Positions 2,672-46,249 of a stretch of 64,000 nt of DNA are shown piece by piece. Position 1 is the first letter of the stretch. Each line of letters starts with the position of its first letter. The stretch comes from an uncultured Rhodospirillales bacterium (GTDB lineage Bacteria > Pseudomonadota > Alphaproteobacteria > RF32 > CAG-239): assembly GCA_902778645.1 (NCBI GenBank), contig CACYYO010000002.1:1511-65510 (forward strand). Direction: 5' to 3'. Under the pieces are notes generated by a model. That model saw only the letters and a list, made by a program, of their open reading frames with translations, made no database searches and was not told the DNA's origin. Position numbers and translations under genes: made by a program.

Positions 2672-3029
2672 TTTCTCTCCCCATTCAAAAGATAATTAAT
2701 ACAAATATAATCGTGGTTATATTCTGTTTATGCCAATCGGATTCTTTATAGTGATATAACCTCATTTTAATCTGACCGACATGAACATATTCCATATTCT
2801 TCAACTTCTGTTTGGAATTAGGTTTCTCAAATACCTCTTTATAATAAAGAACGATTCTTTGTCGTACCTTTCAAAATACCATATCTTTGAATATTTCTAA
2901 AACACAACACTCTCGCCGAAAAATTAAGAAACATCGTATGTTATCTTCCATCAACGGCAACAGTCGTTCTAGCTTTACAAAAAGTTCCCCGTATTCGAGA
3001 GCAAAGATAATAACAATAATAATATACTC

Positions 3030-3228
3030 GGATAATCATTCGTAACACCTGTAAGATAACACAATTATTAACTTAACGGCTTTAAGAAAAACTCCTGAAC
3101 AATCATCCCTTAAAGTGATTCGGATAACCATCCGTATCACCTGTAAGATAACACAATTGTTAATCTAACAGCTTTAAGAAAAATTCCTGAAGGATCATCC
3201 CTTAAAGTGATTCGGATAATAAACTGAA
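3030..3228. repeat. About 92-bp direct tandem repeat, 2.1 copies, in the dnaA upstream region. Each unit begins with a DnaA-box-like TTATCCGAATCAC when read on the minus strand.
   Basis: Unit 1 (about 3031-3122) and unit 2 (about 3123-3214) are roughly 90% identical: ggataa(t/c)cat(t/c)cgta(a/t)cacctgtaagataacacaatt(a/g)ttaa... The motif gtgattcggataa recurs at 3024, 3116 and 3208 with a 92-bp period. Confidence 0.6.
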
Positions 3229-16439: not shown

Positions 16440-16850
16440 GTGGCAACCTTTTTTTGTTGCTGCCGTGCCTTCATTCATCGGTCACGCGGCACTTCTTTTT
16501 TATTATTGCCATCCCGACCCTACTTTTGTCACTCCGGTGCTTGACACCGGAAACGAAGTGAGCAAGCTGCTTTAGCTGTCGCGCTCCATCCACAGGAATA
16601 AAGCCATATCCCTATGGATACCCGAATCAAGTTCGGGTATGACAGAAAGAGGAGTTCCTTATTATCCCTCCCCTGCATGAGGGGAGGTTAGGAGGGGTAT
16701 TATCCTCCCGACCGAAGCGGAGGGATCTGCGCACGACCTCTCCCCCCAACCTTGTCTTTGTCACCACTCTCAGAACTCTCGACTGCGCTCGAGGTGACAC
16801 CCGTTCTCCCCAAAAAAGAATTGTAACAATTTTATGAATATTAACCAATA
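16440..16850. repeat. Cluster of short palindromic repeat elements. It holds family C (ccacag..aagccatatccctatggatacccgaatcaagttcgggtatgaca) and family A (cctcccctgcatgaggggaggttaggaggggt).
   Basis: Segment 16578-16645 is near-identical to 21001-21060. Segment 16665-16725 shares the CCTCCCCT-N-AGGGGAGG-ttRGgaggggt palindrome with 32351-32391 and 33642-33685. No ORF is supported in this region. Confidence 0.6.
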
Positions 16851-20854: not shown

Positions 20855-21075
20855 CCGATTCTTCACCGTCATTACCCGGCTTGACACCGGAGTCCACAGT
20901 AAAGCAGCCATATTCCTGTGGACTCCGGCTCGGAGGCCGGAGTGACAGAAAAGAAAAAATTCCTCCCCTTTTCTTCACCGTCATTACCCGGCTTGACCGG
21001 GTAATCCACAGGAAAGCAGCCATATCCCTATGGATACCCGAATCAAGTTCGGGTATGACACCGAAGAAAGAAAGC
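20855..21075. repeat. Family C palindromic repeat elements. The 5' module ttcttcaccgtcattacccggcttgac occurs twice, joined to two different 3' modules.
   Basis: 20858-20960 is a perfect long palindrome (accggagtccacag...ctgtggactccgg; ccggctcggaggccgg). 20972-21060 matches 16578-16645 and partly 28128-28200. Confidence 0.65.
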
Positions 21076-21970: not shown

Positions 21971-22051
21971 TGCCGTTGCGGCCTGTCTTTTATTATGGTC
22001 ATTCCGGCCTGTTTTTTTTATTGTCATTCCGGCCTCCGAGCCGGAATCTCC

Positions 22052-24688: not shown

Positions 24689-24744
24689 CACGATTTTTTC
24701 CTTGCAAAAACGCAGAGATAAAGGTATAAAAAAGCAAGTTTATC

Positions 24745-24838
24745 ATGGAGAACGGCGGGTTAAGAATTCGCCAATCCGGTCAGGTTCGGAAGGAAGCAGC
24801 CGTAACGAATGACCTTAAGGTCGCTTGTTCTCCGCCTT
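24745..24838 (+). ncRNA. ffs: Signal recognition particle RNA (small bacterial SRP / 4.5S RNA)
   Basis: ccggtcaggttcggaaggaagcagccgtaacgaatgac matches the conserved SRP domain IV (GGUCAGGUCCGGAAGGAAGCAGCC). Terminal helix ggagaac (24747-53) pairs with gttctcc (24827-33). It lies immediately upstream of dnaX, a very common location. Confidence 0.7.
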
Positions 24839-24852
24839 AGTTTTGAAGAGAA

Positions 24853-26541
24853 ATGGCAGAAGAAAAAACAGATAATCAATATGTTGTTTTGGCGCGTAAG
24901 TATCGTCCCCAAAATTTTGAGGATTTGCTCGGGCAAGATGCGCTTGTGCAAACATTAACTAATGCCATCAAAAACAATCGCCTTCATCACGCATATATTT
25001 TGACCGGCATCCGCGGTGTCGGTAAGACGACAACCGCACGACTGATTGCCAAAGCTTTGAACTGTACGGGTTTGGATGGTAAAGGCGGACCGACAATTCA
25101 CCCTTGCGGTGTTTGTGAGAACTGTAAAGCCATTGCCGCTGGTCGCCATATTGATGTTTTGGAGCTTGATGCTGCCTCTCGCACGGGTGTCGACGACATG
25201 CGCGAGATTTTAGATGGTGTCCGCTATAAACCGACCAACGCTCGTTATAAAATCTACATCATCGACGAAGTTCATATGCTCTCTAAAAGTGCGTTTAATG
25301 CTCTTTTGAAGACACTTGAGGAACCGCCTTCACATGTCAAATTTATTTTTGCGACGACGGAAATTCGCAAAGTGCCGGTGACGGTTCTGTCCCGTTGTCA
25401 ACGATTTGATTTGCAAAGGTTGGGGATTGAAGATCTGCTCAAGCTGTTTCATAAGATTGCCGAGGCTGAAAACCTCAAAGCTGACGAGGAAGCTCTTCAT
25501 ATGATTGCCAAAGCCGCTGACGGCTCGGCCCGTGATGGTCTCTCCCTTTTGGATCAGGCTATTTCTTTGGGTGCCGGAACGGTTAAAGCGGATATTGTTA
25601 AAAATATGATTGGTCTGGCAGATGTCACGCAAACTTTTGACCTTTTCGAAAATTTGATTAACGGAGATACAAAGCAGGTCATTATAACCCTGCAGGAGCA
25701 GTATAGAAACGGGGCAGATCCGTTGTCTCTTCTCAAAGATTTAATTTCTTTGACGCACCTGATTGCCAAAGTTAAATTAGTTCCGAGTTTTATAAACGAC
25801 AGTTCCGTCAGCGAGGCGGAGAAAGAGTTTTGCGCTAAAGTTAAAGATAAAATCAGCATTGCGATTCTTTCTAAAATATGGCAAATGATGATGAAAGGAA
25901 TCAGCGAATTACAGTTAGCTCCGATTCAAATTGATGCATTGGAGATGATTTTGATTCGCGTCGCTTATTCGGCATCGTTGCCAACCCCTTATGAGGTTTT
26001 GGAAGACGTAAAAAAAAACTCTAATTTAAATATTACCCCTAATCTGAGTCGCCGGTCGCAAGATCAAACACCGACACAACCGGCACCTGCAGAAAAAAAA
26101 ACATCATCTCAAACGCTTAATACCATAGAAGAAATGGTTTCTTTTTTGGAGCAAAAGAAGTACCCACTGCTTGTGTATTCACTAAAACACGATGTTTGCA
26201 TCACAGAATTTCAGCAAGGTTTGATAAAAATGACGATTGCGCCGGCACTGCACCCTGAGTTTATTCAAAACCTTGTCAAGACTTTGCGAGAAACAACCTC
26301 TCAAACATGGGAAGTTGAGATTGTCAAAGGTCCATTAGGTGAAACAATAGCGGATAAAGAAGCCGCCGCCCTTGCCGAACAGCAACGAGATGTTTTAGAA
26401 TACCCCTTAGTTCGGGCAATTATGGCCGAATTCAAGGGTGCAAAAATAGAAAGTTTGATTCGCCGTGTTCAACAATCAGAGGACGACGAGGCAGAAGATC
26501 AACCCACCACCGACATGATAGAAGAAGAGGAAACAGAATAA
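24853..26541 (+). CDS. dnaX: DNA polymerase III subunit gamma/tau
   Basis: Walker A GIRGVGKTTTARLIAKALNC, Zn module CGVCENC, and SRC and sensor motifs. Confidence 0.95.
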   Translation: MAEEKTDNQYVVLARKYRPQNFEDLLGQDALVQTLTNAIKNNRLHHAYILTGIRGVGKTTTARLIAKALNCTGLDGKGGPTIHPCGVCENCKAIAAGRHIDVLELDAASRTGVDDMREILDGVRYKPTNARYKIYIIDEVHMLSKSAFNALLKTLEEPPSHVKFIFATTEIRKVPVTVLSRCQRFDLQRLGIEDLLKLFHKIAEAENLKADEEALHMIAKAADGSARDGLSLLDQAISLGAGTVKADIVKNMIGLADVTQTFDLFENLINGDTKQVIITLQEQYRNGADPLSLLKDLISLTHLIAKVKLVPSFINDSSVSEAEKEFCAKVKDKISIAILSKIWQMMMKGISELQLAPIQIDALEMILIRVAYSASLPTPYEVLEDVKKNSNLNITPNLSRRSQDQTPTQPAPAEKKTSSQTLNTIEEMVSFLEQKKYPLLVYSLKHDVCITEFQQGLIKMTIAPALHPEFIQNLVKTLRETTSQTWEVEIVKGPLGETIADKEAAALAEQQRDVLEYPLVRAIMAEFKGAKIESLIRRVQQSEDDEAEDQPTTDMIEEEETE

Positions 26542-26861
26542 TGATGAACATACAAGGCTTAATGAAACAAGCACAAATGATGCAAAAGCATATGGAAGAA
26601 ACCCAGGGTAAACTGGCTCAGCAGGAAGTCGAAGGCACAAGCGGTGCCGGAATGGTTAAAGTGACCATGAATGGTAAGTTTGAAACCAAAAAAATCAACA
26701 TCGATAAGTCTCTGATTAATGCGGAAGAAAGCGAGATTTTGGAAGATTTATTGGTTGCTGCGCTAAACGATGCACGCGCAAAAGCTGATAAAGCGATGGA
26801 AGACGGTATGAAAGAAGTAACCGGCGGCTTAAACCTCGGCGGACTCAAATTACCGTTTTAA
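26541..26861 (+). CDS. ybaB: Nucleoid-associated protein YbaB/EbfC
   Basis: 106 aa, MMNIQGLMKQAQMMQKHMEETQ... Its start overlaps the dnaX stop (ATAATGATG). Confidence 0.9.
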   Translation: MMNIQGLMKQAQMMQKHMEETQGKLAQQEVEGTSGAGMVKVTMNGKFETKKINIDKSLINAEESEILEDLLVAALNDARAKADKAMEDGMKEVTGGLNLGGLKLPF

Positions 26862-27140
26862 GGAAACAGCCTCTCTGTCATCCTGAGCGAACACCTCATT
26901 TACCGTCATCCTGAGGAGTTCCTCTCTTTTATGTCATCCTGAGGAGTTCCGAAGGAACGACGTCAGGATCTCCGAACGCCAGTTCGGTAAAAAAGGAATC
27001 ATTATTATGGTAGGACTTCGTCCTAAGATCTTGACGTCACTACGTTCCTCAAGATGACAGGACATAATGAAGTCCCCTGAGCGAGAGAACCGAGCGTCAG
27101 GATCTCCTTTACAGCAGTTCGGTAAACCCTTATAAAAGGA
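26862..27140. repeat. Array of family B palindromic elements (gtcatcctgag(c/g)...ttccgaaggaacgacgtcaggatctcc...gttcggtaaa)
   Basis: Several nested or tandem copies, with hairpins gttcc-gaa-ggaac and gacgtc. A near-identical copy lies at 33677-33760. The distal end supplies the SD (aaaaggaaac) for the GIY-YIG gene. Confidence 0.6.
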
Positions 27141-27147
27141 AACATTA

Positions 27148-27435
27148 ATGAAATTAATGTATACATACATAATAACCAATAAAAAGTATGGAACCTTATA
27201 TATAGGGGTAACAAATAACTTAAGGCGTCGAATATATGAACATAAACAAAAAATCGTAAAAGGGTTTAGTTCTCGCTACAATTTGAATAGGTTAGTATAT
27301 TATGAAATTTTCGAAGATGAAATCAATGCGATAGAAAGAGAAAAGCAATTAAAACTATTTAAAAGACAAAAGAAAATAGAACTAATAAACGACTTTAATA
27401 CTAACTGGGATGATTTGTATAATAATATCATTTAG
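27148..27435 (+). CDS. GIY-YIG nuclease family protein (UPF0213-like, small standalone)
   Basis: MKLMYTYIITNKKYGTLYIGVTNNLRRRIYEHKQK has the GIY-YIG core with conserved Arg and Glu. Confidence 0.8.
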   Translation: MKLMYTYIITNKKYGTLYIGVTNNLRRRIYEHKQKIVKGFSSRYNLNRLVYYEIFEDEINAIEREKQLKLFKRQKKIELINDFNTNWDDLYNNII

Positions 27436-27450
27436 AAAAAGGAAACAGCA

Positions 27451-28044
27451 TTGTCCGGACAAGAAATTGAAAAACTCGTTAAACTGATAGCCAAACTTCC
27501 CTCCCTGGGAACACGGTCGGCACGCCGTATTACGCTGCAATTGCTCAAAAAGAGGGAAAGTCTGTTGTTGCCGCTTATCCAAAGTTTAACCGATGTTGCG
27601 GAAAACATCAAAACCTGCGAGATTTGCGGCAATTATGATACAACAAGCCCCTGTTCCATATGTGCCTCAGCAGAAAGGGATCAAAGCACAATTTGCGTTG
27701 TTCAAGATGTGTCAGACTTATGGGCGATGGAAAGAGTCTCTTTCTTCAAGGGAAAATACCACGTTTTAGGGGGCGTTTTATCGGCGCTGGACGGCATAAC
27801 CGCTGAGGACCTAAATATTGACAGCTTAGAGCAAAGAATAAGCCATGGAGGCATTACAGAGCTTATTTTGGCTCTGCCGGCAACTGTTGACGGACAAATT
27901 ACCACACACTATTTGCTCTCTCGATTCAAAAAATACAATCTCAAAATGACGACGCTGGCACAAGGGATTCCGATGGGCGGAGAGCTTGAATATATGGACG
28001 AAGGGACGATTCAACTGGCTCTCAACTCAAGGAAAGAGTTATAA
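27451..28044 (+). CDS. recR: recombination protein RecR
   Basis: HhH motif (LPSLGTRSARRITLQLL), C4 zinc finger (CEICGNYDTTSPCSIC) and Toprim. The start is probably TTG. Confidence 0.9.
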   Translation: MSGQEIEKLVKLIAKLPSLGTRSARRITLQLLKKRESLLLPLIQSLTDVAENIKTCEICGNYDTTSPCSICASAERDQSTICVVQDVSDLWAMERVSFFKGKYHVLGGVLSALDGITAEDLNIDSLEQRISHGGITELILALPATVDGQITTHYLLSRFKKYNLKMTTLAQGIPMGGELEYMDEGTIQLALNSRKEL

Positions 28045-28124: not shown

Positions 28125-28200
28125 GTCATCCCTTTCTCTTTATCGTCATTACCCGGCTTGACCGGATAATCCACAGCAAAGCAGCCATAAACCGGATGTA
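28125..28200. repeat. Family C palindromic element copy
   Basis: cgtcattacccggcttgaccggataatccacagcaaagcagccata matches 20972-21020 and 16578-16610. Confidence 0.5.
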
Positions 28201-28976: not shown

Positions 28977-31900
28977 TTATTTCTTGCCTTCTTCCGTCTT
29001 TTTGGTATCAGTACATTTGCCTGAAATCTCATCAAATACGCCGCCCTGAGCAGCACACGCCTGTTGAGCAGCGGCACTTATCTGGTTTCTCTTGTTTTCA
29101 TTACTCTGGAAATCAAAATTGCCGGATGATTGTTGATACCTTGCTTCATCATACCCTTCGGTTACGCCAGTTAAAACTCCAAACAGAGTCCCCATGGCCT
29201 GTGCGCCATCACCCAATCCGAGCATACCACCCAAGCCTTCTCCTTCATTACGACCGGCCTCTGCCATAGCAGCGGTATTGCTGGCACCTGCAGCAGCCTC
29301 TGCTACCTTTTCCATACCGGTCAAAATCGTAGAACCGCCGCCTTTTCCGTCATTGTTCATCCAGTTATTAAAACCTGTTTGCTCGCTTTTAACCTGCTGC
29401 TCCAAATTTGCCAAAGCATTCTTTTCATTCTCGCTGCAAACCGAGGTCGAACATTTTTTCAGCAATTCTTCATATGTCTGGTTCAATACGCCGCGATATG
29501 CTTCTTGAGCCCTTGATGACCCCATATCTTGTACATTATTAGAAATTGCGCTGCCTGCTCCGGCCAAAATATTAGCCTCTACAGCCGTATTCCCGACCAT
29601 TGTTGCAAGAGCAGTTGTTGCATCTGTGACGTTAGAGAAGAAGTCACTGGCGCCGTCTTTTGCCGCCTTATAATTTGCTTCCGCCTGATCAACAACGGCT
29701 TGAGCGCTTTCCTCTCCGGATCTTGCATACGCCAAGTCACGCTCAGCCTGAGCAACCAGATTATCCCCTTCTCTTGTCGCCTGATCCAAAGCATACTGTG
29801 CTTGGTTTACCAGATTATCCCCTTCTCTTGTTGCCCGATCCAAAGCATATTGTGCTTGTGTGACTGCATTATTGGCATTATTATAATCAGCTTTTGCCGT
29901 ATTAAGTGCCTGATTGGCCTGAGATAAAAGATATTCGTCATCAGTAATATCTTTGCGCAGGTTTTCCATATCAGCACGAATCTCTTCTTCGGTTTTGTTG
30001 CCGTACTTGTTTGTGAGGTCCTGATATTCCTGACGATATTGTTTGGCATCCGCTTCTGCTTGCGCCATTTGCTCTTTAAGCTTGGCAATTTGCGCCGCCT
30101 CTGCCGGACGATTAGGGTCTAACTGATTAATTTGCTCTTGTAATCTGGCAACTTCATCATCTTTGGCTTTAGCTGCATCTAATAAATCATCTTTTTTGAG
30201 ATATTTATTCATATCTTCCAATTCTTTGGCGTGTTGAGCGCGTTGCGCTTGCAAGTTGTCAATATTTTCTTGGGCCTGATTAACAGCAGCCAATTTTTCT
30301 TCAGCCTCTTTCTTTGCAGCATCTAATTTATCTTGCTGTTCTTTGACAAGAGCATCTCTTTGTTTCTTCGCTTCATCAACACCTTTTTGTGCCTCATCAA
30401 TAAGATTATCTCTCTCTCTCTGTGCTGCGTCTAAAGCTGCCTGTTTTTCAGCAACATTGGCTTGCGCCTGATTCAAAATCTCGTTAGCTGTATTCAAATC
30501 CTGCTGTGCGGCACGGACGTAATCATTTGTGCCATTCCAAGCATCGCTAAATGCTTTCGCGGCGTCAATAGTGCCTTCCACGTAGTCTTTTACTGATTGA
30601 ACGCCCACAGCAGTATTACGAATAATGTTAAGACCATTCTTTATTGCATCAACGCCATCCATGAAGCTCCACCCTTTACCATCTGCCGCCGCTTTTAAGT
30701 CTGCCATATTAACATCCGGACATAAATTAGGGTTATTGCTGCATTCTTGAATCATTTGTTCCAATTCTTGCGGAGACATTGATGAGTAGGACGACGATCC
30801 GCCTGATCCGCTTGTAAAGTACTGCGCATGGTTACCATTAGGCAAGAAGTCTCCATATTGCAATGTAGACCCGTCATTATAAACGATTTCCTCAATCAAA
30901 GCGGTTGTCATAGAGAGAATAAATAGACCGATACCGATATTGGCCAACTGCTTAAAATTAATTTTACCGATAATTGCGCTATAAGCAAAGGCAATCATTC
31001 CGAAACCGGCTAAAATATAGACAATAGAACGTAAATCAGCGACAATAAGTGTAATTCGGCAAGCAAGGTATTGAAAGATACCAAACCCGCCACTTTGGGA
31101 CATATTGTCTTTAGCCTCTTTACACGTCGGCTTTGCCAGTGCGGCATTTACCTGTTTTTGAATATCAGTACTAGTTCCTGCTTTATCTCCATCTCCGATT
31201 CCTCCAGTAGAATCTGTATTTAAACCGTAGCCACAAGTTCCTTCTTCAATACAAGAATATTCACCGGAACGATTTAGAGCTTCTTGATAAGCTTTTGCTT
31301 CTGCCTGACATTCAGCAGACCCTTTTTCAAATTGACAATCATCATAAGCTTTTTTAGCCTGATCAAGTTTCTGCTGAGCTTGTCGTGCTTCTGCTGCTTT
31401 TGCCGCTGCCACACGATCTTCTCGAGCCTTTATAATACATTCTGAGATTGGTCCACCACATTTTTCAAAAGCAGCATGCTCTTCAGCTGTCGCATCAACA
31501 GAAAAAGTACAAGCTCTAAGAGTGGTACTATAAACCATTCCACCGGAACAAGAATTTTGGTTAACTTGTAAAGCCGTAGAATCAGCATTATTTTGCGCAG
31601 TTGCATTTTTATTATTAGCTTCAGTAGCCGCCTTTGCTTTTTTTCCGGCTTTTTTTGCTGCGTTTTGATAAGCATTATAAAGGTCCTTCAATCGAGAACA
31701 AACAGCATCATTCGGATTTTGTTTACAAGTTGCAATGGCGGCATCATATGCGGCCTCAGCTTCTTGTGCTGCTTTCTGTGCTGCCTCATTTTCTGCATTT
31801 GCTTTATCCGCTTTTTCTTGAGCGCTGTTAGCTTTTTTACTGGCTTTATCAGCATTACTATTGTCTTTTTTACATTGCGAAAGAGCAGATTTTGCATTAC

Positions 31901-32273
31901 GGAGCTGCGTTGCCATGCCTTCTTGACATTGCTTTAAAGCTGTTTGAGCGTTTGTTAAAGCGATACTCACATGCTTTGAAGCATCCATGCCACCGGAAGT
32001 ACATTTTTTATACTCCGCTTTAATGGTGTTATATACATCACAAACAGAATCCAACTTATCTTGAGCCGAAGTAACAGCTGCCTGTTGCGTTTGACAATTA
32101 CCATAAGCATTATAAGCAGAGACAGCACTCTGCGCATTTGCACAATTACCATAAGCCTCATCCCTGGTAATATCTTCAATATCAGTTTTCGCATTAGCTT
32201 CATTAACAGACAACAAAAATCCTAAGCACAGTAGGAATGAAACACCTCTCATCGCTTTATTAATCATTTTCAT
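28977..32273 (-). CDS. Giant secreted coiled-coil protein with an embedded VirB2/TrbC-like (T4SS pilin) double-TM hairpin
   Basis: Signal peptide MKMINKAMRGVSFLLCLGFLLSVNEANA. Cys-rich N-terminal domain and A/Q/K-rich coiled coils. The core LRSIVYILAGFGMIAFAYSAIIGKINFKQLANIGIGLFILSMTTALIEEIV aligns with the two small paralogs downstream. Internal duplicate NQAQYALD(R/Q)ATREGDNLV. Confidence 0.6.
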   Translation of the reverse strand: MKMINKAMRGVSFLLCLGFLLSVNEANAKTDIEDITRDEAYGNCANAQSAVSAYNAYGNCQTQQAAVTSAQDKLDSVCDVYNTIKAEYKKCTSGGMDASKHVSIALTNAQTALKQCQEGMATQLRNAKSALSQCKKDNSNADKASKKANSAQEKADKANAENEAAQKAAQEAEAAYDAAIATCKQNPNDAVCSRLKDLYNAYQNAAKKAGKKAKAATEANNKNATAQNNADSTALQVNQNSCSGGMVYSTTLRACTFSVDATAEEHAAFEKCGGPISECIIKAREDRVAAAKAAEARQAQQKLDQAKKAYDDCQFEKGSAECQAEAKAYQEALNRSGEYSCIEEGTCGYGLNTDSTGGIGDGDKAGTSTDIQKQVNAALAKPTCKEAKDNMSQSGGFGIFQYLACRITLIVADLRSIVYILAGFGMIAFAYSAIIGKINFKQLANIGIGLFILSMTTALIEEIVYNDGSTLQYGDFLPNGNHAQYFTSGSGGSSSYSSMSPQELEQMIQECSNNPNLCPDVNMADLKAAADGKGWSFMDGVDAIKNGLNIIRNTAVGVQSVKDYVEGTIDAAKAFSDAWNGTNDYVRAAQQDLNTANEILNQAQANVAEKQAALDAAQRERDNLIDEAQKGVDEAKKQRDALVKEQQDKLDAAKKEAEEKLAAVNQAQENIDNLQAQRAQHAKELEDMNKYLKKDDLLDAAKAKDDEVARLQEQINQLDPNRPAEAAQIAKLKEQMAQAEADAKQYRQEYQDLTNKYGNKTEEEIRADMENLRKDITDDEYLLSQANQALNTAKADYNNANNAVTQAQYALDRATREGDNLVNQAQYALDQATREGDNLVAQAERDLAYARSGEESAQAVVDQAEANYKAAKDGASDFFSNVTDATTALATMVGNTAVEANILAGAGSAISNNVQDMGSSRAQEAYRGVLNQTYEELLKKCSTSVCSENEKNALANLEQQVKSEQTGFNNWMNNDGKGGGSTILTGMEKVAEAAAGASNTAAMAEAGRNEGEGLGGMLGLGDGAQAMGTLFGVLTGVTEGYDEARYQQSSGNFDFQSNENKRNQISAAAQQACAAQGGVFDEISGKCTDTKKTEEGKK

Positions 32274-32350
32274 GGCACATCCTCCTAATAGTCCTTAGAA
32301 TTTTATATTAATAATTTCCCGTCTTTGTTCTTTTTTTTGCCCCTTTATAA

Positions 32351-32391
32351 TTCCTCCCCTTTTCAATAGGAGAGGGTCAGGAGGGGGTCTG
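32351..32391. promoter_or_regulatory. Family A palindromic element (ttcctccccttttcaataggagagggtcaggagggggt) in the promoter region of the giant VirB2-like gene
   Basis: Shares the CCTCCCCT-N-AGGGGAGG-N-GGAGGGG architecture with 16665-16706 and 33642-33685. Confidence 0.45.
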
Positions 32392-32403
32392 ATAACACCT
32401 TGT

Positions 32404-32925
32404 TTATCCGCCTGTCTTCAAGCTGTCGGTTATCATATCTGTCGTAATAACGGTATCCTCAACCATGTAGTTAATAATCGCCGCTGTTGCCGCAATTACA
32501 AACAACCCGATCAGAATAGCCGTCAACCATTTATAATTAATGTTTCCGAAAATGGAGCCGATAACCACCGCAATAATCCCAAAACCGGAAACCGCATAAA
32601 TAATCTCTCGCAAGCCGGTAAAGATTTTGCCGCCATGCGCCGCCAAATCACCAAATAAGGGACCCGAACTCCCACTCCCATGACCAAAATGAATAACGTT
32701 GGACATTCCTGAAGCAGCTGTTCCTACCACTTTTTTCGCTGCCTCCACAGCTTCAGGACTAGGATCTTCCGCCCACGAGTTCGTTGCAAATAAAATTGAA
32801 GAACACACAAACACCGCCAAGCTGGCAACAACCAATTTCTTAAAATTTATGTGCAACATTCTAAATATTTCCCTAAAAGAAACAAAAGGAAGGCGTTGTG
32901 AGCAATTTGTAAATAAATTTTTCAT
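32404..32925 (-). CDS. VirB2/TrbC-like T4SS pilin family protein (paralog 2, 173 aa)
   Basis: Signal peptide (LAVFVCSSILFATNSWA), then LREIIYAVSGFGIIAVVIGSIFGNINYKWLTAILIGLFVIAATAAIINYMV, two hydrophobic helices separated by a K/W loop. Confidence 0.6.
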   Translation of the reverse strand: MKNLFTNCSQRLPFVSFREIFRMLHINFKKLVVASLAVFVCSSILFATNSWAEDPSPEAVEAAKKVVGTAASGMSNVIHFGHGSGSSGPLFGDLAAHGGKIFTGLREIIYAVSGFGIIAVVIGSIFGNINYKWLTAILIGLFVIAATAAIINYMVEDTVITTDMITDSLKTGG

Positions 32926-32964
32926 AACAAACCTTCCTTTCTTTTTCAGTTAAATTAACATATA

Positions 32965-33327
32965 CTATTTTGTTGTACTGCTCTGGAAGGTATCACCCAT
33001 TGTACCTTCACCAGTACCGGCATAACCACTGGCACCTGTTGCGTATTCAACGATAGCACCGGCTGCCGCCAACAGGGCTAAACCGACTGCCAAGCCGGCA
33101 AACCATCCCCATTTAACCTTACCGATAATCGCTTGGTAAGCAATACCAACCAAACCGAAACCACCGATAACGAAGGTAATGGTTTTGACATGTTGGAACA
33201 CATTCATTGCTTTTCTCTCTGCAACCGTCATTAACGGTGAAGCTTGCGCAAAAGCATCAAGTGATACCAATGTCAAAACAAATGCCCAAGAGCAAATTGT
33301 CCAAATATTTTTTTTCAAGAAACGCAT
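32965..33327 (-). CDS. VirB2/TrbC-like T4SS pilin family protein (paralog 1, 120 aa)
   Basis: Signal peptide ending AFAQA, then ITFVIGGFGLVGIAYQAIIGKVKWGWFAGLAVGLALLAAAGAIVEYATG. Same architecture as Agrobacterium VirB2 (a GxFG helix, a K/W loop, a G-rich helix). Confidence 0.65.
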   Translation of the reverse strand: MRFLKKNIWTICSWAFVLTLVSLDAFAQASPLMTVAERKAMNVFQHVKTITFVIGGFGLVGIAYQAIIGKVKWGWFAGLAVGLALLAAAGAIVEYATGASGYAGTGEGTMGDTFQSSTTK

Positions 33328-33629: not shown

Positions 33630-33760
33630 TCTTTTTCTTCTGTCACTCCTCCCCTTGGTTTCAAGGGGAGGTTGGAAGGGGTTTTGTCATCCTGAGGAGT
33701 TCCGAAGGAACGACGTCAGGATCTCCTTTACGTTAGTTCGGCAAAAAAGGAATCATTACA
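33630..33760. repeat. Composite of a family A palindrome (33642-33685) and a family B element (33677-33760), lying between divergent virB2-like and porin genes
   Basis: tcactcctccccttggtttcaaggggaggttggaaggggtttt, followed by gtcatcctgaggagttccgaaggaacgacgtcaggatctcctttacgttagttcggcaaaaaaggaatcatt. The latter is near-identical to 26920-27000. Confidence 0.6.
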
Positions 33761-33772
33761 AGGAAAAAGTAA

Positions 33773-34897
33773 ATGCAAAAAAAGTTTTTATTCTATATTC
33801 TGGCAAGCACAGTCTTAACACTCCACCCGTCTCTGGCACAAGAAACGAAGCTTTCTGCCGCCGCAGCGTGGGATTCCTTTTATGGCTATACTTTTTTTGA
33901 TAAAGACTACAAACACAAAGACCATCGCCAGCATTTTACCAATCTCTTTGAGGTTAATCTGGGCGCAGAAAAAGAATTTGACAATGGCTGGTCACTGGCT
34001 CTTTACGCTGATTTATATGCCGGCATCAACAAAAGACAACGCAATTACAGCAACGGCCTGTGGGGGCATGAAATTTATGCGATTATAGATAATCCCTACG
34101 GGCGGGCAATGATTGGGGAGACACAAAACGTTGCGGCGCAGTTTCATATCAACGCCCCGAAGGCAGGAAAGTTCGGTATTAATGACAGTGAAGTCACCAA
34201 TTTTATAGCAAACCCCAACTGGCTCAAAGACAAGCATCACACTGCTTTTCGTACCCTTAATTCAACCGCGATTAACACAGATGGAACCGTTGCCAAACTG
34301 AGTTACATTTCCCCTGAGATTCATAATATAACCTTAGGTATCAGCTATATTCCCGACACTTACAGCCGCACCGGTCTTGTTAATAGAGACGCTCGCTATG
34401 CTGAAGATGACGGTTATGTCGGTGCGGCATATTATACGGCAGACCTTGGCTTTGCGGAATTGGAAAGTTCTCTCGGATACGCGGTCTTTAATAAAGATGA
34501 CCGAGACTTAAGCCTCGGTGCAAGCTTATATCGTCTGGGCTGGACAATCGGCGGCAGCTGGCGCAAAACAGATGTTGAGGGGAAAGACTATCCGATAACT
34601 CATATCAGCAATACCCCTAAATTACCGGATTTATTCGATAATTACCGCGAAGGGCAGGCTTGGGATATAGGTATCGGCTATCAGTTCGGTCCTCTCAAAA
34701 CCGCGCTGTCGTATTTTGAGAGCAAGGCCAAAAACACCTCTAATAAAGATAAAATATGGCTCTTGTCGAATGAGTTTCGCTATGATAAGCATCTGGCATT
34801 GTACTTAGCAGCAGCCAAAACGGACTTTGAGGGTGCATCAAACGCAGAAAGTAATCGCGGTTGGGCGTTGATGAGCGGCTTTAGTGTAGGATTCTAA
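33773..34897 (+). CDS. Outer-membrane beta-barrel porin-like protein
   Basis: Signal peptide MQKKFLFYILASTVLTLHPSLAQE. Alternating beta-strand pattern. C-terminal aromatic terminus ...GFSVGF. Confidence 0.7.
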   Translation: MQKKFLFYILASTVLTLHPSLAQETKLSAAAAWDSFYGYTFFDKDYKHKDHRQHFTNLFEVNLGAEKEFDNGWSLALYADLYAGINKRQRNYSNGLWGHEIYAIIDNPYGRAMIGETQNVAAQFHINAPKAGKFGINDSEVTNFIANPNWLKDKHHTAFRTLNSTAINTDGTVAKLSYISPEIHNITLGISYIPDTYSRTGLVNRDARYAEDDGYVGAAYYTADLGFAELESSLGYAVFNKDDRDLSLGASLYRLGWTIGGSWRKTDVEGKDYPITHISNTPKLPDLFDNYREGQAWDIGIGYQFGPLKTALSYFESKAKNTSNKDKIWLLSNEFRYDKHLALYLAAAKTDFEGASNAESNRGWALMSGFSVGF

Positions 34898-45156: not shown

Positions 45157-46249
45157 ACGCCCTATCAAAATTAATTCGCGGGTCAACCAGAGAGTAGGTT
45201 ATATCACTGATAAGCTTCAGGACTAACCCCAAAAGAGCAAATATATAAAGTGTCCCGAAAATGACCGGATAATCACGGGTCATAATCGCTTCATAACCGA
45301 GCAGCCCCATACCATTGAGTGAAAAAATAACTTCAATCAGCAAAGAACCGGTAAATAACATTTTAATCAAAAGCGCAGGGAATCCTGCAATGACGATAAG
45401 CATGGCATTTCTGAAAACATGCCCGTAAAGGACTTGATTTTCGGTCAATCCTTTTGCTTTGGCGGTTAACACGTAAGGTTTATTAATTTCATCTAAAAAG
45501 GAGTTCTTTGTCAGCATGGTCAAGCTGGCAAAACCGCCGATAACCATAGCGATAACCGGTAGGGTGATATGCCAAAAATAGTCTCCGATTTTTCCTAAAA
45601 CAGAAAGATTATCCCAGTTGTCAGAGGTTAATCCTCGTAAAGGAAACCACTGGAAATAAATTCCGCCGGCAAACAAAACAATCAAAAAAACAGCAAATAA
45701 AAATACAGGGATAGCCGCCCCGATGACAATAGCAAAAGACGTCCAGACATCAAAAGAGCTACCGTCTCTTACCGCTTTTCTTATACCCAGAGGGATAGCT
45801 ATTAAATAAATAAGCAAAGTCGACCATAGTCCCAATGAAATTGAAACCGGCATTCTTTCTTTAATAAGTTGCCAAACGGTTTTGTTGTGGTAAAAACTTT
45901 GCCCGAAATCAAAGGTAGCATACTCTTTTACCATCTTAAGAAAACGAATATGAGCCGGTTTATCAAAGCCAAACTGTTTTTCCAAGGCTTTCACCAAATC
46001 TTCCGGAACACCCTGTGCACCTTGATATTTATTCTGTTGCGCAGTAGTCATATTAACTTGAGTTGTAGAACTGAGGGATGACTTTGCATCTGTATTCATC
46101 CCTTGGTACTTGGCAAGCATATATTCAACCGGACCGCCCGGAGCCAGTTGGATAATCACAAAGTTCAAAAACAAAATGCCGAGTAACGTCAGAGGAATAA
46201 GAAGAAGTCGCTTTAAAATATAATTTCTCATTTTGCCTCTTTCATCCAC
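45155..46249 (-). CDS. yejB: ABC transporter permease, YejB/OppB family (peptide / microcin C-type)
   Basis: Six TM helices and the ABC permease EAA-like region. The N-terminus MRNYILKRLLLIPLTLLGILFLNFVIIQLAPGGP is typical OppB/YejB. Confidence 0.85.
   Translation of the reverse strand: MDERGKMRNYILKRLLLIPLTLLGILFLNFVIIQLAPGGPVEYMLAKYQGMNTDAKSSLSSTTQVNMTTAQQNKYQGAQGVPEDLVKALEKQFGFDKPAHIRFLKMVKEYATFDFGQSFYHNKTVWQLIKERMPVSISLGLWSTLLIYLIAIPLGIRKAVRDGSSFDVWTSFAIVIGAAIPVFLFAVFLIVLFAGGIYFQWFPLRGLTSDNWDNLSVLGKIGDYFWHITLPVIAMVIGGFASLTMLTKNSFLDEINKPYVLTAKAKGLTENQVLYGHVFRNAMLIVIAGFPALLIKMLFTGSLLIEVIFSLNGMGLLGYEAIMTRDYPVIFGTLYIFALLGLVLKLISDITYSLVDPRINFDRA

Follow-up and report, generated by a model that had tools for sequence, protein, structure and literature searches.

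Ssn nucleases (CDD cd10448) are single-domain GIY-YIG enzymes of about 94 amino acids, which were described together with their hairpin targets (SRM) by Chenal et al. (Nat Commun 2025, PMC11893778). We analyzed a locus of this kind in the window, i.e., the whole 64-kb stretch of contig CACYYO010000002.1 from an uncultured alphaproteobacterium, where the intergenic region between ybaB and recR is occupied by an insertion carrying hairpin repeats and a 95-aa GIY-YIG gene, here called ssn. According to the paper, SsnA of Neisseria meningitidis binds the NTS hairpin CGTCATTCCCGCGMAVGCGGGAATCYRG only as single-stranded DNA (ssDNA) and cuts the same strand a few nucleotides upstream; four homologues were shown to bind ssDNA exclusively and to cleave it upstream of the hairpin. 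Cutting depends on the three bases that precede the palindrome on its 5' side, and binding on the C that immediately follows it; mutations of Y6, Y17, or E64 abolish cleavage. At least one SRM occurs near 71% of the Ssn homologues, and 42% have SRM on both sides. SsnA lowers the transformation of N. meningitidis by NTS-bearing DNA. The authors liken the NTS-ssnA-NTS arrangement to an insertion sequence and to REP/RAYT; mobility is not shown by them.

The window locus resembles the Ssn/SRM system in its single-domain GIY-YIG protein of about 95 aa, which keeps the catalytic Tyr, Tyr, and Glu and is 47% identical to the Neisseria orthologue, and in the oriented hairpins (GTC at the 5' side, C at the 3' side) located both beside the gene and scattered in intergenic DNA. 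It differs from this system in hairpins that fall outside the published SRM string, in the long structured loop of the hairpin family of the cassette (family B), in a degenerate left arm, and in the absence of a right arm. The association of the gene with hairpins cannot be regarded as new, being already published as the Ssn/SRM system. What goes beyond the 2025 paper is a filled/empty pair of sites with a 10–11-nt target duplication, which is unreported there, and a second lineage with a young cassette.

Other described systems are more distant. REP/REPIN–RAYT elements (HUH Y1) also have a small gene between inverted oriented hairpins with a short 5' head (GTAG in contrast to GTC here), ORF-less doublets (i.e., lacking the open reading frame, ORF) dispersed in intergenic DNA, and chemistry acting on ssDNA hairpins. 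However, Ssn is a GIY-YIG hydrolase and not an HUH tyrosine transposase, a covalent intermediate is not expected, and its role in mobilization is putative; membership in REP/RAYT was rejected because the associated gene is GIY-YIG. Elements of the IS200/IS605 type share with Ssn elements subterminal hairpins recognized as ssDNA and canonical copies without target duplication, but their catalytic fold is different, and the Ssn element is much smaller (~360–400 bp) with ends that are inverted repeats. Neisserial dRS3/NIME repeats have the same type of hairpin core, ATTCCC-N8-GGGAAT within NTS, and the Neisseria ssn, the homologue found in N. gonorrhoeae, lies inside such a dRS3/NIME array. The stem sequences of the window differ from these repeats, and the host is an uncultured alphaproteobacterium. 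Finally, prokaryotic Slx1-like/UPF0213 proteins (BH0048, 1zg2; EF2693, 1ywl) are minimal stand-alone GIY-YIG proteins and the nearest solved structures by sequence; the match is weak (family profile E = 4e-6), and these proteins are not described as being associated with repeats (PMC1564403).

With a probability of roughly 0.3, we propose that hairpin–ssn cassettes may mobilize themselves by means of the 95-aa ssDNA-nicking GIY-YIG enzyme, the window representing the insertion of a whole cassette into the 10-nt target AAGGAAACAG in the region of the recR ribosome-binding site (RBS), in two lineages ~8% apart in their flanks.

Insertion site, target duplication and age of the cassette

In the window, ybaB (26541–26861, plus strand; Pfam YbaB_DNA_bd, E = 2e-31) and recR (27451–28044, plus strand, start codon TTG; Pfam RecR_HhH, RecR_ZnF, Toprim_4, and RecR_C) are separated by 589 nt (26862–27450), which contain hairpin repeats and an intact GIY-YIG ORF. 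Both the separation of about 590 bp with a 95-aa GIY-YIG ORF and the insertion into a normally contiguous ybaB–recR pair had been claimed in a preliminary description of this DNA and were confirmed by the PF01541 match of the ORF and by the comparison of the spacer across relatives, respectively. Six relatives with RecR 85–90% identical to that of the window (11 contigs, L014–L020 and L109–L112) have the TAA codon of ybaB, 11–12 nt, and then the recR start; neither a GIY-YIG gene nor a GTCAT hairpin was found in the retrieved DNA of these relatives. The exact RecR and GIY-YIG proteins of the window were found only on contigs sharing its arrangement.

An 11-nt exact direct repeat, AAGGAAACAGC, is positioned precisely at both junctions of the insert. 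Its left copy (26860–26870, plus strand) shares its first two bases with the end of the ybaB stop codon, and the right copy (27439–27449, plus strand), also evident from the comparison with empty sites, is now the ribosome-binding region of recR. The removal of one copy together with the intervening DNA results in TAA-GGAAACAGCA-TTG, with a 10-nt spacer like that of the relatives; the predicted sequence of the empty allele is ...CCGTTTTAAGGAAACAGCATTGTCC..., and the predicted circle or excision junction is ...CATTTAGAAA joined to CTCTCTGTCAT.... Thus, since the relatives have only an 11–12-nt spacer and the deletion of one copy restores such a spacer, the ybaB–recR gap is a lineage-specific insertion of ~568 nt plus a 10–11-nt duplication of the old spacer. 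This duplication recreated the RBS of recR itself, so that the gene keeps its site. Between the left border of the insert and the first GTCAT there are 6–7 nt, which places this border near the position where SsnA is reported to cut.

The same composite cassette was found at the same site in a second lineage, represented by two independent samples (contigs L005 and L006); each of the two lineages comes from at least two independent samples, the source samples being ERZ28614839, ERR3224597, ERZ27280242, ERZ27227494, and SRR3181122. The flanks of the window and L005 are 7.7% different (163/2109), while the inserts differ by 1.4% only (8/578; Fisher p = 5e-10), with five of the eight differences located in one converted patch. 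The synonymous divergence (dS) between the window and L005 was 0.50 for recR, 0.42 for ybaB, and 0.30 for dnaX, compared with 0.02 for ssn, and lineage-specific flank alleles occur immediately outside the duplication on both sides (26870 and 27450). The near identity of the insert in diverged flanks indicates that the two hosts separated long before the cassette arose in its present form, and points to recent movement of the cassette as a whole. The cassette either entered the same 10-nt target twice as a whole or was exchanged with almost no flanking DNA, and ordinary homologous exchange predicts neither of these.

Two differences between the lineages lie within the repeats. The hairpin–leader spacer (26974–26980) differs blockwise, being GAACGCC in the window and TTTACAGTA in L005, which agrees with the spacer found at the second leader copy; in addition, L005 has a 24-nt leader duplication at the position of 27114. 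These differences suggest conversion and slippage among the copies inside the cassette.

The ssn gene and the anatomy of the insert

The ssn gene (27148–27435, plus strand) encodes a protein matching PF01541 (GIY-YIG) with E = 1.2e-16 and 61 bits (cutoff 22.6) over residues 4–76; no further domain was found in Pfam except for an overlapping match to the related T5orf172. The protein was 47% identical over 89 aa (E = 3e-31) to the SsnA orthologue of N. gonorrhoeae, taken as the 94-aa ORF (L101, 1486–1770) carrying Y6, Y17, and E64 in the numbering of the paper; the E value is well within the E < 1e-10 used there for SsnA homologues (PMC11893778). Residues Y7, Y18, and E65 of the window protein align with these three catalytic residues and are invariant in 20 homologues. 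By analogy with the characterized enzymes, the window protein would probably nick ssDNA.

No NCBIfam model is specific to the Ssn family. Identification as a GIY-YIG homing endonuclease of the I-TevI type was rejected, because the TIGR01453 score was 18.3 bits against a cutoff of 56 and the protein has just 95 aa. No homologue of the window protein was found in phage records. The low G+C content of the ORF (25%, compared with 41% for the window) was rejected as a sign of foreign origin, since it is a trait of the family: in 78 of 79 genomes the G+C content of the ssn ORF is below that of its own locus (mean difference, 10 points), while tracking the G+C content of the host (r = 0.88; loci L021–L100).

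The insert begins with CTCTCT and two truncated heads at 26877 and 26905 (26871–26932, plus strand), which have a 28-nt period and do not fold; each of them consists of GTCAT, the 5' half of a stem, and a T-rich tail. They are followed by a complete SRM-like hairpin, the left arm of family B (26933–26970, plus strand; layout GTC, AT-stem...stem-AT, C; –9.6 kcal/mol as DNA), and by a copy of the ssn 5' leader (CAGTTCGGTAAAAAAGGAATCATTATT; 26974–27009, plus strand), which ends in AAAAAAGGAATCATTATT followed by a residual ATG at 27007. An inverted SRM-like hairpin (27027–27058, minus strand; –9.2 kcal/mol, z = –3.1) forms the right arm of this doublet; its stem shows compensatory changes relative to the left arm (CCTGA/TCAGG to CTTGA/TCAAG). 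The part from 26933 to 27058 is, therefore, an ORF-less doublet retaining the ssn leader and start codon. Next to the ORF there is a degenerate arm (27072–27104, plus strand), in which the head GTCCCCTGAGCG replaces GTCATCCTGAGCG and the fold is weak (–3.7 kcal/mol, z = –0.5), and then the leader of ssn itself (27108–27147, plus strand), with AAGGA at 27136–27140, 7 nt before the ATG. The stop codon of ssn is 3 nt (AAA) away from the duplicated target, and no right-hand hairpin was found downstream of the ORF within the insert.

The predicted secondary structures showed that both complete arms fold as hairpins; in the window, the folded part extends from the AT of GTCAT to the AT preceding C. 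The junctions GTC|AT...AT|C are present at the hairpins 26933, 27058 (minus strand), and 33686. As to the dense array of family B elements claimed in the preliminary description, the repeats are real, but the array is not uniform: it consists of elements of several kinds, which are partly truncated, inverted, or degenerate. Taken together, these features make it very likely that the locus is an inserted Ssn/SRM cassette with divergent SRM variants.

A solo copy of family B (33686–33758, plus strand) is located upstream of the porin gene and consists of a hairpin (33686–33723) and an ssn-type leader. The 45-nt stretch 26929–26973 is repeated at 33682–33726 with 98% identity and the 29-nt leader 26976–27004 at 33730–33758 with 90% identity; for the 19-mer CAGTTCGGTAAAAAAGGAA, two matches were found, compared with 0.05 expected. 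The preliminary description had suggested that the shared repeat terminus can donate translation signals to adjacent genes. The shared terminus is real, but the donation is not supported: recR is served by the duplicate of its ancestral spacer, and the porin gene (33773–34897, Porin_4) possesses an AAGGA at a distance of 8 nt from the ATG, the AAGGAA of the repeat being ~20 nt upstream of that ATG. The terminus reads more simply as the 5' leader of ssn itself surviving in ORF-less derivatives, and the solo copies end in an RBS-like sequence because they retained this leader.

A third copy of AAAAGGAAACA was found in the ssn leader (27134–27144), where 11 nt are identical to the RBS copy of recR (27437–27447); the remaining two family B leaders have AAAAAAGGAATCA at this place. 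This may reflect either gene conversion between the leader and the target or a chance likeness between RBS sequences. A role of the hairpins as terminators was rejected, as no terminator-like sites occur in 26500–27600 and SsnA is reported to lack RNA binding (PMC11893778).

Association with hairpins in other genomes and possible mobility

The search with the window protein gave 2754 homologues (E ≤ 1e-5) with 55–75% identity from several phyla. We analyzed 80 loci on contigs chosen as one genome per species, including Alpha-, Gamma-, and Deltaproteobacteria, Cyanobacteria, Planctomycetota, Bacteroidota, Dehalococcoidia, Candidate Phyla Radiation, and others, in which GTCAT-headed hairpins were counted by a strict detector. 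Hairpin density within 150 nt of ssn was 4.56/kb, compared with 0.16/kb elsewhere and 0.45/kb in distant intergenic DNA. The hairpins faced outward, with 41 on the plus and 14 on the minus strand upstream of the gene, and 14 and 39, respectively, downstream. Outward GTCAT hairpins bracketed 25 of 79 ssn-family genes, compared with a single gene among the 354 controls (Fisher p = 2e-19), which bears out the co-occurrence of the gene with palindromes; the published association is independently reproduced by these statistics. With a hairpin finder blind to the head sequence, the 5' junction was again GTC|AT, and AT|CCA was obtained for the 3' one. As 62 perfect hairpins had 28 distinct stem sequences, it is the structure and the junction bases that are conserved in the hairpins, while the stem sequence is variable.

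The canonical unit, from the outer GTCAT to the outer ATGAC, has a length of ~360–400 bp, the unit of Sinorhizobium meliloti (L102, 1443–1808) having 366 bp; if the proposed self-mobilization is true, hardly any autonomous mobile element known from bacteria would be smaller. Next to full copies, S. meliloti (L102) and a Rhizobium plasmid (L113) also carry derivatives that have the same arms but lack the ORF, and the protein sequence of homologue P0005 was found unchanged in three gene contexts. For the canonical element of the Rhizobium plasmid no empty site was recovered, the intergenic region being unconserved in other plasmids. The closest non-identical homologue (75% identity; L007, 1400–3591) adjoins the genes of a reverse transcriptase and bAvd, i.e., a diversity-generating retroelement; this proximity is probably coincidental.

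The cassette had been suggested earlier to be mobile and possibly mobilized by its nuclease. Mobility in some sense is supported by the target duplication and by the much lower age of the cassette compared with its flanks; mobilization of the cassette and its hairpins through Ssn nicking is a tentative suggestion, for which we would give less than even odds. By analogy with SsnA proteins, Ssn would bind its hairpin only as ssDNA, and the bound enzyme would introduce a nick into this strand shortly before GTCAT, at a distance of a few nucleotides on the 5' side, with which the left edge of the insert, 6–7 nt 5', is compatible. The solo copies of family B (26933–27058 and 33686–33758) are ORF-less derivatives keeping the ssn leader, and recR remains translatable after the insertion through the duplicated RBS. 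Compared with autonomous insertion sequences, the locus shows a filled/empty pair and a 10–11-nt duplication, but it is present as a single copy in 64 kb and has one degenerate arm.

Several observations weigh against the reading of the locus as an inserted, possibly Ssn-mobilized Ssn/SRM cassette. The canonical layout hairpin–gene–hairpin is missing here, as the ORF has only a degenerate arm on one side and no arm at all on the right; for the same reason the window copy may be immobile. Only one GIY-YIG gene was found in the window by tblastn, alongside at least four hairpin families. The published SRM string HGTCWYN(0-2)YYVSBRHN(0-5)WNVSBRGN(0-2)RNCYNB has no match at the GTCAT hairpins of the window, its sole match there being at the unrelated position 45711; its authors compiled this string manually from 29 genomes and allowed a loop of only 0–5 nt (PMC11893778), and the loop of the family B hairpin is long (~21 nt) and structured. 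Since the string misses real variants, repeat counts of genomes based on it are probably underestimates. Around canonical elements of other genomes no target duplication was seen, and matching flanks were inverted and not direct; thus, the 10–11-nt duplication is not a trait of the family. A metagenome scan for a master copy of family B revealed six solo hairpins on unrelated contigs, with no ssn gene in the retrieved contigs. Moreover, the role demonstrated in Neisseria is the restriction of incoming ssDNA and not transposition (PMC11893778).

This role underlies the alternative that survives best, although we consider it doubtful too: Ssn may be a domesticated ssDNA restriction or genome-dynamics factor of the host that cuts incoming or exposed ssDNA at hairpins, and the cassette would have arrived by ordinary recombination, i.e., transformation with illegitimate or short-homology joining. 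The reduced transformation by NTS-bearing DNA (PMC11893778), the degenerate arm and lacking right arm of the window copy, its being the only ssn gene in the window, and the canonical elements without visible target duplication all agree with such a factor. Against it, the tract of low divergence stops exactly at the borders of the insert, whereas homologous exchange should co-transfer the flanks; the ORF-less derivatives and the identical copies of P0005 in its three contexts resemble the decay and spread of a transposon.

It is improbable that the hairpins spread by other means and that ssn is a selfish gene of the homing type, which cuts ssn-free hairpins and is copied into them by repair, so that the arms are a split target. 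The ORF, counted as always lying between two complete hairpins, the ORF-free doublets with the same arms, and the several hairpin families beside a single ssn gene could be explained in this way. Yet the empty ybaB–recR sites are hairpin-free and, therefore, the window insertion did not home into a repeat; enzymes of the Ssn type act on ssDNA only and make single-strand cuts, unlike classic homing by double-strand breaks, and the model of group I intron endonucleases remained far below its cutoff (18 vs. 56 bits). Least of all can the arrangement be put down to coincidence, with repeats accumulating in a permissive spacer beside an unrelated small GIY-YIG repair gene: many hairpin repeats do occur in other spacers of the genome, but the 10-fold enrichment over distant intergenic DNA, the orientation bias, the single bracketed gene among 354 controls, the common arrival of repeats and gene in one duplication-bounded insert, and the published biochemical partnership (PMC11893778) make this hardly credible.

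For the proposed self-mobilization, the empty site, the duplication at the junctions, the left border at the expected cut position, and the young cassette in two lineages make the question of whether Ssn elements are transposons directly testable at this locus. For annotation, genes of 95-aa GIY-YIG or excinuclease C-like proteins and the surrounding GTCAT-headed palindromes form one unit.

Other hairpins and neighboring genes of the window

At least four hairpin sequence families of the window share the layout of GTC, an AT...AT stem, and C. Outside the insert, such hairpins were found at 16618 (minus strand), 20868–20946, 20980–21059, 21998–22047, 28145, and 33686. Two of these loci are ORF-less doublets of other SRM-like hairpin families, identified by repeats and fold: 20868–20946 with the outward heads GTCAT...GTGAC (the right head is of the GTCAC type) and 20980–21059 with the outward heads GTCAT...ATGAC. 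An SRM-like hairpin that folds (28145–28170, plus strand) is located downstream of recR and is preceded by a truncated head at 28126.

Tandem truncated heads with a period of ~25–30 nt occur in the window at 26877–26932, 21988–22035, and 28126–28144. A complete hairpin always follows on their inner side, and they were also found in the unrelated genomes L021, L025, L064, L008, and L104; the available part of the Ssn paper (PMC11893778) does not mention them. Truncated heads may be footprints of repeated nicking and repair. GTCAC-headed hairpins (GTCACTCCGGTGCTTGACACCGGA, GTCACTCCTCCCCTTGGTTTCAAGGGGAGG) and related CCCTCCCC/GGGGAGG palindromes were found at 16532–16560, 33642–33680, and 16660–16700; they may represent either additional variants of SRM or repeats of a family of their own. 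Hairpins of the window are close to genes of surface proteins, as reported for Neisseria.

The insertion interrupts the conserved ffs-dnaX-ybaB-recR block. The gene of the small signal recognition particle RNA, ffs, the first member of the block, had been placed upstream of dnaX in the preliminary description and was indeed identified there at 24744–24839 (plus strand; Rfam RF00169, 59.7 bits, E = 1.3e-10), followed by dnaX at 24853–26541 (plus strand; Pfam DNA_pol3_delta2, DNA_pol3_gamma3, and DUF3646). The Rfam scan at gathering thresholds revealed ffs and one tRNA only, with no match for the repeats. The apparent split of dnaX in contig L001 is an N-filled scaffold gap and not biology. A promoter-like site (27395–27423; TTAATA-17-TATAAT, 10 of 12 consensus matches) is located within the 3'-terminal part of ssn, a short distance before recR; judging from the consensus match only, it could allow the expression of recR independently of ybaB.

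The minus strand between recR and the porin gene (28977–33327) encodes a TrbC/VirB2-type pilin (32965–33327), a 173-aa ORF (32404–32925), and a 1098-aa coiled-coil-rich protein (28977–32273), the latter two having no Pfam match; possibly, these genes belong to a type IV secretion locus. At 3028–3211, the window contains a 92-nt unit in two tandem copies with 89% identity.

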